Program-made: the position numbers and the translations under genes
The notes under the pieces: generated by a model
Database searches by the model: none
What the model saw: only the letters and a program-made list of their open reading frames with translations
Told to the model about the DNA's origin: nothing
DNA from: a virus
Lineage: Duplodnaviria > Heunggongvirae > Uroviricota > Caudoviricetes
DNA length: 41,620 nucleotides
Virus record (IMG/VR): IMGVR_UViG_2713896897_000009
Direction: 5' to 3' (one strand)
Shown: positions 34,884-35,576 of the stretch, in pieces
Position numbering within the stretch: the first letter of the stretch is position 1
Layout of the letters: every line of letters starts with the position of its first letter

Positions 34884-35576
34884 ATGAACATAGGAAATCG
34901 AGTCAGACAACTTCGCCAGGCGAAGAACATGAAAATCGCCGATCTCGCTGAAGCAATAGGAGTGGATGCGGCGAATATCTCACGCCTGGAAACAGGTAAG
35001 CAGAAACAATTCACTGAACAAGCCCTGAGTAATATTGCCAGGAGCTTAGGTGTTGATATTGCAGATCTCTTTACCTCAGACTTCAAAAGTAATACTGTAT
35101 GTAAAAACAGTGCTTGTGAGGATGTTGCGCAGGTGAAGGATGTATTCCGTATTGAAATGCTGGATGTCAGTGCCAGTGCGGGAAATGGCCTTATCCAGGG
35201 CGGTGATGTCATTGATGTGATTCATGCCATTGAATACAGAACTGATAATGCTGTATCGATGTTTGGCGGACGGCCAGCCAATCACATTAAAGTTATCAAC
35301 GTTCGTGGGGACAGTATGTGTCCAACCATTGAGCCAGGAGATCTCATCTTCGTTGATGTCAGTATCAATCAGTTTGATGGAGATGGTATCTATGTATTTG
35401 GTTTTGATGATAAAATTTATGTCAAACGACTGCAAATGATACCTGACAAACTACTGGTGATTTCTGATAACCAGATTTACCGTGAATGGGGAATTACCAG
35501 CGAAAATGAACACCGGTTTATGGTCTTTGGAAAGGTCTTAATCAGCCAGTCACAAACCCTTAAGCGACACAATTAA
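34884..35576 (+). CDS. cI: CI repressor (N-terminal HTH plus C-terminal S24 LexA-like autopeptidase domain)
   Basis: 230 aa; HTH IADLAEAIGVDAANISRLETGK; S24 signature VRGDSMCPTIEPGDLIFVD and DKIYVKRL. Confidence 0.9.
   Translation: MNIGNRVRQLRQAKNMKIADLAEAIGVDAANISRLETGKQKQFTEQALSNIARSLGVDIADLFTSDFKSNTVCKNSACEDVAQVKDVFRIEMLDVSASAGNGLIQGGDVIDVIHAIEYRTDNAVSMFGGRPANHIKVINVRGDSMCPTIEPGDLIFVDVSINQFDGDGIYVFGFDDKIYVKRLQMIPDKLLVISDNQIYREWGITSENEHRFMVFGKVLISQSQTLKRHN
35093..35112. promoter_or_regulatory. SOS-box-like palindrome TACTGTATGTAAAAACAGTG inside the cI linker-coding region
   Basis: CTGT-N8-ACAG with AT-rich spacer and TA/T flanks; encodes ..SNTVCKNSAC.. in cI. Confidence 0.35.

Follow-up and report, generated by a model that had tools for sequence, protein, structure and literature searches.

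In the lambdoid prophage sequence held as IMG/VR record IMGVR_UViG_2713896897_000009 (41,620 nucleotides (nt), analysed in full and hereafter called the window), the gene for the CI-type repressor (34884..35576, plus strand, 230 amino acids (aa)) contains, within its own coding sequence, a predicted LexA operator, or SOS box, at 35093..35112, a palindrome and as such without strand. This box is almost certainly a functional LexA operator, judging from its sequence and its conservation. What might be the role of such a site inside a repressor gene? Directly downstream of it, a Shine-Dalgarno (SD) sequence and an in-frame start codon are conserved, and the box may be the operator of a nested unit of promoter and ribosome-binding site that, in the SOS response, would yield a form of the repressor comprising the C-terminal domain (CTD) only, here termed CI'; we regard this proposal as about evenly balanced.

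In the textbook case of a lambda-type switch, the SOS signal reaches the prophage only via RecA-stimulated self-cleavage of CI. The CI family described here is common in pathogens (Salmonella ST64B and Fels-1, Shigella SfII and several Stx2a-converting phages), with a strictly conserved predicted LexA operator in the repressor gene. If the nested-gene interpretation is true, it would represent a new and compact coupling of prophage induction to LexA, a LexA-gated arm inside the CI/Cro switch, and would provide a clear example of linker-coding DNA that serves as a complete regulatory region. It would also bear on how fast antibiotics that trigger SOS elicit a response from toxin-converting prophages. 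The minimal interpretation, a functional intragenic LexA site, would by itself add an overlooked input to models of these prophages.

A predicted LexA box in the linker-coding region of cI

The predicted operator reads TACTGTATGTAAAAACAGTG and agrees with the classical LexA consensus, TACTGTATATATATACAGTA, at 16 of 20 positions. Its CTGT-N8-ACAG core (CTGTATGTAAAAACAG, 35095-35110) encloses an A/T-rich spacer. When scored with a symmetrised 20-nt position weight matrix (PWM) for LexA, derived from ~27 K-12 sites, the box reaches 24.3 bits at a heterology index (HI) of 4.6, and both values fall inside the ranges spanned by the training sites of the matrix (12.7–27.8 bits and HI 2.1–11.8, respectively). 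Ranked by this score, the top sites of the window are those at 26971-90 (24.6 bits), 35093-112 (24.3 bits, the cI box) and 29871-90 (21.6 bits), followed at a distance by a site of 9.9 bits. No window out of 300 simulated under a Markov-2 model contained a site as good as the cI box (top score 22.0 bits, mean maximum 13.5 bits), which confirms the SOS-box observation. Here, an earlier note on this DNA, made from the sequence alone, had proposed the LexA-type palindrome and recommended scoring it against a shuffled background; on both counts the site holds up. The same note had spoken of two high-quality sites where fewer than one would be expected by chance. The excess over chance stands, but the count was too low, as there are three strong boxes. 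The bare CTGT-N8-ACAG pattern occurs five times in the window compared to an expectation of 0.56, and the three remaining matches, at 5420, 33861 and 38623, with at most 6.5 bits each, look like chance occurrences.

The box covers cI codons 70-77 (N70-T-V-C-K-N-S-A77) and thereby falls in the interdomain linker. Pfam assigns residues 3-64 of CI to the helix-turn-helix (HTH) families HTH_3/HTH_26 and residues 104-218 to Peptidase_S24, and the box lies inside the hypervariable linker between them (residues 65-86). This is the most variable stretch of CI, in agreement with the prior assumption that protein constraint is weakest at this place. Taken by its sequence, the cI box displays every feature of a gammaproteobacterial SOS box, and we infer that it is occupied by LexA.

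The box is conserved at the level of DNA

The comparative set consisted of 209 loci with CI relatives, collected from contigs with one genome per species and from IMG/VR, and corresponded to 120 distinct coding sequences of 61–100% aa identity. Hosts named among the species-level contigs were Shigella, Citrobacter, Pseudescherichia, Klebsiella, Buttiauxella and Trabulsiella, and protein relatives of CI were also present in Salmonella, Kluyvera, Kosakonia, Leclercia and Lonsdalea. The LexA box is found at gene nucleotide +209 in every locus (209/209) and every distinct allele (120/120). It comes in 34 variants, all of which fit the LexA consensus (16–19 of 20 positions), and is summarised by the logo T A C T G T A T R T A A A W M C A G T R, wherein CTGT and CAG are invariant across the 120 alleles. 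The modal box of the family is TACTGTATATAAAAACAGTA, which is the operator sequence of umuDC as well.

Is it the DNA or the peptide that is maintained? The linker residues flanking the box show the highest variability in CI (aa entropy of 2–3 bits, with indels on the downstream side). Within the arms of the box, T71 is encoded by ACT and S76 by AGT in 120/120 alleles, and V72 by GTA in 117/120. At codon 70, the third base is T in 113/120 alleles, with N, T, S, I, P or F as the encoded amino acid; at codon 75, it is C in all 120, with N, Y, S, D, H or T. The conserved degenerate codons of the alignment (n=131) have a median codon entropy of 1.04 bits; only seven of them fall below 0.1 bits, T71 and S76 being among these, and V72 is the next lowest (0.17 bits). 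With synonymous sites frozen while the neighbouring residues vary, selection appears to act on the DNA rather than on the peptide. The comparison across related cI alleles thus shows the palindrome to be kept beyond amino acid constraint, the reverse of the outcome that had been named as speaking against a role for the site, namely synonymous changes that destroy it.

A common Citrobacter variant carries a T71A exchange via GCT, which converts the box into TGCTGTATATAAAAACAGTG and leaves it with a score of 23.4 bits; the operator of the lexA gene itself starts with TGCTGT. At the protein level, the 120 protein-cluster representatives comprise 113 with the motif TV[YCFS]xxS, five with TVHxNS and one with AVYKNS, and the motif is lost in one, a single contig. 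Exceptional alleles are found at the loci of the L143 group and at L159, L220 (P0100) and L219 (P0021), with no single model covering them.

The box is likewise present in a subfamily of ~50% identity that includes the repressors of Cronobacter phage ENT47670 and Salmonella Fels-1 (FsoR/STM0898). IMG/VR yielded 21 relatives of this Fels-1/ENT47670 type, and all of their 17 distinct coding sequences have a box, located at +206 or +212. Compared to the CI of the window, the Fels-1 group is 39–41% identical in the N-terminal domain (NTD) and 58–60% in the CTD. Salmonella ST64B Sb38 (83.5% identical) and phage Eeyore carry the box, too. No box was found in the CI proteins at ≤43% identity (those of BTP1, HK022, HK639, Turner, a Klebsiella phage, Mannheimia 535AP1 and Stx2_EH2201), nor in YmfK of the K-12 element e14; being a different allele without the box, the latter was dropped as a reference for chromatin immunoprecipitation. 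Since near relatives keep the palindrome and distant CI proteins lack it, we interpret it as a DNA element of long standing that a single CI clade has strictly maintained.

A second constraint downstream of the box

At a distance of 30–40 nt 3′ of the box, the cI gene bears a second, independent synonymous constraint, consisting of an SD sequence and an in-frame start codon. In the window, an SD-like GAGGA (35118..35122, plus strand; duplex with the 16S 3′ end of −6.8 kcal/mol) is placed 10 nt ahead of an in-frame GTG, the codon of V84. From there, a predicted nested open reading frame (ORF) for CI' extends over 147 aa in the frame of cI (35133..35576, plus strand), and its product would contain the cleavage-site strand (A99-G100) and the whole S24/dimerisation domain and be devoid of the HTH. 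In most lineages, the start codon is GTG or ATG at alignment column 87 (Val). The E. coli clade, to which the window belongs, has GTA at column 87 and an invariant GTG three codons earlier (V84, 35133). A start codon at one or the other of these two columns occurs in 112/120 alleles.

We compared this conservation with the expectation from the encoded protein by means of 30 representative lineages (<88% nt identity) and 2000 synonymous resamplings, with an SD being defined as a duplex of ≤−6 kcal/mol situated 5–10 nt upstream. A start codon at column 84/87 was present in 28/30 lineages compared to 7.8 ± 2.2 expected (P<1/2000), and its combination with an SD in 24/30 compared to 4.0 ± 1.7 (P<1/2000). 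The SD is encoded by differing residue pairs across lineages (E-G, G-G, K-D and E-E). In the Fels-1/ENT47670 subfamily, the initiation region is the near-canonical AGGAGA-N6-GTG, formed by the Arg-Arg codons AGG AGA, in 17/17 distinct genes. The matching position is devoid of a start codon in four of five relatives without the box. In these alignments, the SD and the in-frame GTG are conserved beyond amino acid constraint, just as would be predicted of a nested gene.

Two further candidates for an internal start were discarded. A small ORF in the +1 frame, opening at the ATG of 'GATGT' and 26 codons in length, had suggested itself by the near-invariance of GAT at D94, which is equalled at other Asp columns, so that the constraint on CI suffices to account for it; M91/ATG is not conserved, as its column varies between M, V, L and I.

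A candidate promoter overlapping the box

The left arm of the box may double as a −10 element. This candidate −10, TACTGT (35093..35098, plus strand), is preceded at 17 base pairs (bp) by a candidate −35, TTTACC (35070..35075, plus strand), and transcription is predicted to start at ~35104-35107. The spacing between −35 and box is free of indels in 120/120 alleles; the −35 reads TTTAC[C/A/T/G] and the TAnnnT form of the −10 is kept in 113/120. With a simple sigma-70 matrix, TTTACN-17-TACTGT ranks between first and fifth (median, second) among the ~2000 sense-strand candidates per cI gene. A promoter scan at a threshold of 9 of 12 matches returned nothing at the box. Over ~66 nt, the linker DNA thus offers, in this order, the putative −35, the spacer, the −10/LexA box, a short leader, the SD and the GTG, which is the layout of an ordinary SOS gene. 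An intrinsic terminator 3′ of cI (35597..35614, plus strand) would end the nested transcript as well.

Other promoter placements were rejected. For an antisense promoter at the box, a minus-strand TACTGT is available in part of the alleles only and the −35 would fall in the indel-rich linker. A −10 inside the box spacer (TATATA/TATAAA), which is where the −10 of umuDC is located (TATATA or TATAAA), is met by a G in 56/120 alleles and has no conserved −35 upstream.

A model for SOS-induced CI' and its alternatives

Together, these features suggest the following scenario. In an undamaged lysogen, LexA would be bound to the box and the nested promoter would be silent, so that full-length CI alone would be produced, from the leaderless transcript of PRM. 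Upon DNA damage, active RecA would lead to cleavage of LexA and the internal promoter would fire, giving rise to a short transcript from ~35104-35107 with a leader of ~30–40 nt. Its SD and GTG (V84 here, V87 in most relatives) would then direct synthesis of the HTH-less CI' of ~147 aa. In repressors of the LexA/CI type, dimerisation proceeds via the S24 domain, and an operator is bound tightly only by a pair of HTH domains. For this reason, CI' should lower repression through mixed dimers with intact CI, whose operator binding would be weaker, and might so act as an antirepressor that sharpens or speeds up induction, beside RecA-stimulated self-cleavage. We infer the nested promoter, the CI' protein and its effect from this arrangement, and we place less confidence in the sign of the effect, CI' as an antirepressor, than in the nested unit as such. 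With the opposite sign, CI' would serve as a decoy that competes for activated RecA and delays induction, similar to the protection of the 434 repressor by Hex (PMC3564112). That the linker DNA of a widespread lambdoid CI family (ST64B, Fels-1, SfII, mEp460 and several Stx2a phages; about one in five complete E. coli genomes) harbours a nested gene for an SOS-inducible antirepressor, which would inactivate full-length CI or tune it in some other way, is accordingly worded here as a possibility, one against which we would lean slightly.

Several observations weigh against the nested unit. On the side of transcription, the promoter is weak (7.8 of ~17 bits) and its −35 falls on conserved Phe-Thr codons, a coding confound; moreover, the −35 is degenerate in the Fels-1/ENT47670 subfamily (TTCTCT or TTTTCA), and in the common Citrobacter variant, TGCTGT, the box is intact but the −10 lacks its key A. 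On the side of translation, 8/120 alleles possess the box but have GTT or GTA instead of a start at columns 84/87, and one metagenomic allele, located beside a HigB toxin gene, has lost the box but kept SD and GTG. Gly, Glu, Asp and Lys abound in the linker, a composition that by itself promotes purine-rich codons resembling an SD, and the lineages counted in the start-codon test are not fully independent. The translation initiation region (TIR) of the window itself is among the weaker ones (GAGGA-N10-GTG, with V87 being GTA), and the predicted TIR accessibility differs slightly between the long (0.31) and the short transcript (0.43). Finally, non-cleavable LexA (lexA3) does not stop the induction of a Fels-1 Q::lacZ fusion by mitomycin (PMC3121763). 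Because Fels-1 is inducible in the lexA3 background, induction does not require LexA cleavage, and the box would modulate rather than drive it.

How does this compare with what has been reported on relatives? In the window, the −10 of PRM, TGTAAT (34872..34877, plus strand), is located 7 nt ahead of the A of the cI ATG (34884) and no SD precedes this ATG, so the PRM transcript of cI should be leaderless, just like that of PRM in lambda. Differential RNA-seq of the ST64B homologue SL1344_1967 confirms the leaderless mRNA: its transcription start site (TSS) coincides with the A of the ATG and is preceded by TGTAAT as the −10, and a second TSS is positioned 292 nt upstream (PMC3293720, PMC3963941 supplements). 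No internal TSS is listed for SL1344_1967 in these cultures, which were grown without SOS induction (PMC3293720, PMC3963941), as expected for a repressed promoter. In strain D23580, the ST64B cI gene rises from 251 transcripts per million (TPM) in the InSPI2 condition to 394 TPM on peroxide shock, a prophage-inducing condition, and this rise is weak and unspecific, given the 520 TPM on NaCl shock (PMC7067206). Lemire et al. observed C-terminal 'cleavage products' of C-terminally tagged (3xFLAG) Fels-1 FsoR after mitomycin C (PMC3121763); for these products, a 131-aa cleavage fragment and CI' (~144–147 aa) are not separable. The LexA box in fsoR is not mentioned by these authors (PMC3121763), and in the literature that we searched, neither a cI gene with a LexA box nor a truncated CI inducible by SOS was described. 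The published data are compatible with the nested unit.

The strongest alternative is a roadblock, which the earlier note had put forward in plain form. LexA bound at +209 would act as a roadblock or attenuator that partly stops RNA polymerase coming from PRM and from an upstream establishment promoter, with no need for an internal promoter. Full-length cI mRNA would then be low in healthy cells and increase after LexA cleavage, an incoherent feed-forward loop that would buffer brief SOS pulses. We consider this mechanism, and with it the proposed loop, unlikely, albeit still a live rival. In its favour, the site is conserved and, by sequence, of high affinity, and the least constrained part of a gene is where a pure DNA element would be placed. 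The eight alleles without a start codon and the TGCTGT variant without a good −10 hold the box all the same, reads from the ST64B cI region go up on peroxide shock, and Fels-1 can still be induced in lexA3. However, a roadblock leaves unexplained the conserved SD and in-frame GTG directly downstream, and it accounts neither for the missing start in box-less relatives nor for the fixed distance from the end of the HTH; in addition, more repressor during SOS would conflict with the putative LexA-controlled antirepressor in the same window. The conserved SD and GTG find no explanation in a plain roadblock and fit the operator of a nested unit better. The suggestion that the box marks an internal regulatory point gains support.

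Quite improbable is a constitutive synthesis of CI' from PRM/PRE mRNA through the internal SD-GTG, with the role of the box being separate or quantitative. Indeed, the evidence for the TIR itself needs no promoter, and an SD-led internal start could compete well on a PRM mRNA that is leaderless. Yet an HTH-less dimerisation domain made at all times should poison repression, and the tight and universal pairing of box and TIR, 30–40 nt apart, would go unexplained.

Which protein, then, binds the box? The earlier note had left room for a LexA-like paralog encoded by the phage itself. The paralog in question (30328..30654, minus strand, 108 aa) consists of the LexA DNA-binding domain only (Pfam PF01726, 2.9e-19), with neither an Ala-Gly site nor a cleavage/protease (S24) domain. 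It aligns to residues 2-70 of E. coli LexA, and its recognition helix (RSVNAAVEHLRAL) is a close match to that of LexA (RSPNAAEEHLKAL). The gene sits between those for RusA and a Dam methylase in the early-right operon. Such a protein would mimic LexA without being cleavable and could restore repression at SOS boxes in lytic growth. That the cI box is chiefly the target of this paralog, which would shut down cI in lytic growth, would be consistent with the similar recognition helix and with the early-right position of its gene, but appears very improbable: among 86 related loci that extend for ≥8 kb on the side of cro, the paralog occurs in only 34 (~40%) and the KilA-N gene described below in only 26, whereas the box is present in all (209/209 for the entire set), and Fels-1 is without an annotated counterpart. 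The paralog is not needed as a binder. In 182/209 loci, the cI box is the sole strong box in the fetched DNA. Because the box goes with cI and not with the paralog or the KilA-N gene, host LexA is the likely ligand of the predicted operator.

Scarcely credible, finally, is an accidental likeness to an SOS box of what would be no protein-binding site at all, namely a peptide motif T-V-x-x-x-S (T71, V72 and S76 are invariant residues), an RNA hairpin (the arms could pair in RNA) or a recombination joint of domain modules (NTD and CTD identities differ in the Fels-1 group, 39–41% vs 58–60%), as the synonymous sites are frozen, the nonsynonymous changes always agree with the LexA consensus, down to the distribution of A and T in the spacer, such a spacer would be dispensable for a hairpin of a 6-bp stem and an 8-nt loop, and a joint would not be expected to match the LexA consensus at 16–19 of 20 positions in 34 variants.

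Comparison with known systems

The SOS boxes of E. coli genes such as umuDC, recA and sulA consist of the same 20-bp CTGT-N8-ACAG palindrome with an A/T-rich spacer as the cI box, and usually lie over the −10 or the start site, 20–60 nt before an SD and a start codon. Unlike there, the predicted operator, leader and SD in cI are inside an ORF and translated as the linker of another protein. Among SOS gene products, UmuD, which is LexA-repressed, ~140 aa long and has plasmid and phage homologues, consists of an S24 domain and a short arm with the cleavage site; it is the product of a free-standing gene and functions with UmuC in translesion synthesis. CI' would have the same predicted architecture, but its sequence is that of a portion of a transcription repressor (100% identity), and a UmuC partner is absent here. 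The putative mode of action of CI' is reminiscent of the Tn5 inhibitor, which arises from an in-frame internal start, lacks the DNA-binding N-terminus and poisons the full-length protein via mixed oligomers. The Tn5 inhibitor belongs to another protein family, however, and the truncated form is not LexA-gated.

In its mode of action, the cI element as modelled here would come closest to the antirepressors of Gifsy-1/-2/-3, 186 (Tum) and N15, yet it stands outside that family. The likeness is that LexA cleavage derepresses an inactivator of the lysogenic repressor, which is not degraded in the process (PMC3121763). In Gifsy, 186 and N15, the antirepressor has a small gene of its own at a great distance from the immunity region and shows no relationship to the repressor, and the repressors that are inactivated are non-cleavable. 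In contrast, CI' would be the repressor's own CTD, nested in frame, and CI retains the Ala-Gly site and the Ser/Lys apparatus. The cI box is not attached to a separate antirepressor gene, and neither LexA-dependent induction nor a non-cleaving repressor applies, considering the invariant dyad and the induction of Fels-1 in lexA3.

The nearest precedent for a second protein in or overlapping a lambdoid repressor gene that modulates RecA-dependent induction is Hex of phage 434 (PMC3564112). The hex ORF is reported to overlap the repressor gene in part; lysogens express the protein from the PRM transcript, independently of LexA, and autocleavage of the repressor is inhibited by it (PMC3564112). 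In GIL01 of Bacillus thuringiensis, host LexA and gp7 together repress promoters, with the boxes located in these promoters, and gp6 is a phage homologue of LexA; in this, GIL01 is, in the words of its authors, unlike most temperate phages (PMC4551915, PMC6182141). What the two systems share are phage SOS boxes and a homologue of the LexA DNA-binding domain that wire the lysis-lysogeny switch to the host SOS response. What sets the window apart is its classical CI/Cro switch, with the box being within cI.

The immunity region and further features of the window

The assignment of cI follows from the ORF list, Pfam and the invariants of the alignment. The protein has the make-up of a self-cleaving repressor of the CI/LexA type, that is, an HTH, a linker, an S24 domain with an Ala-Gly site and a Ser/Lys dyad, next to a divergent cro; the self-cleavage residues A99-G100, S144 and K181 are invariant in the alignment. 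Its AlphaFold2 model has a mean predicted local distance difference test (pLDDT) score of 57.6, with a folded HTH (residues 1-64) and low confidence from residue 65 on. PHROG 'UmuD-like' profiles match the CTD weakly, and a scan with Rfam detected no RNA family inside cI. The cro-like gene (34526..34786, minus strand) is divergent from cI and is followed by a CP76/CII gene (33976..34533, minus strand). On both sides of cI, there are 15-bp TTGC-N7-GCAA repeats at 34849-34863 (TTGCTTAACGCGCAA), 35632-35646 (TTGCATATCTCGCAA) and 35656-35670 (TTGCATAATGCGCAA), which have no relation to the LexA box and probably represent the operators for CI in OR and OL. The immunity region is ~97% identical to those of Stx2a_1447, 1720a-02 and PhiR63_1, 96% to that of mEp460 and 90% to that of Shigella SfII. 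The cI allele of the window is found in 1040/5426 complete E. coli genomes.

Of the two other strong boxes, the one at 29871..29890 (21.6 bits) precedes by ~98 nt the ATG (29773) of an antirepressor-like gene with a KilA-N domain (28958..29785, minus strand, 275 aa; PHROG 129, 'transcriptional regulator'). By its sequence context, this gene is a candidate for a LexA-controlled antirepressor of the Gifsy/186 kind, which would act alongside a self-cleaving CI. The third LexA box (26971..26990, AACTGGATATTTTTACAGTA, 24.6 bits) covers codons 3-9 (N T V K I S S) of an N6/N4 DNA methylase gene (25949..26998, minus strand) downstream of Q. It uses the same frame as the cI box (xxT ACT GTA ... xCC AGT), and a related box, CACTGTTTATTTTTACAGTA, recurs 7–9 kb from cI in several of the related loci.

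Two noncoding RNAs were recognised by Rfam close to the immunity genes, a C4 antisense RNA (33431-33518, minus strand, 78.8 bits) and the Hfq-binding RNA isrK (33543-33619, minus strand, 58.7 bits). Both fall inside a 382-aa ORF (32831..33979), the C-terminal part of which has Ash and Rha domains. With these RNAs inside it, the true gene in this ORF is probably shorter and comes after a c4-type antisense immunity module like that of P1/P7. In the counterpart region of ST64B, the very highly expressed noncoding RNAs STnc1290 and STnc1300 lie inside a gene annotated as 'phage immunity protein / putative antirepressor' (PMC7067206 supplement). The late region between Q and lysis contains a row of three tRNA genes (25651-25899, minus strand), which directly follows the methylase gene.

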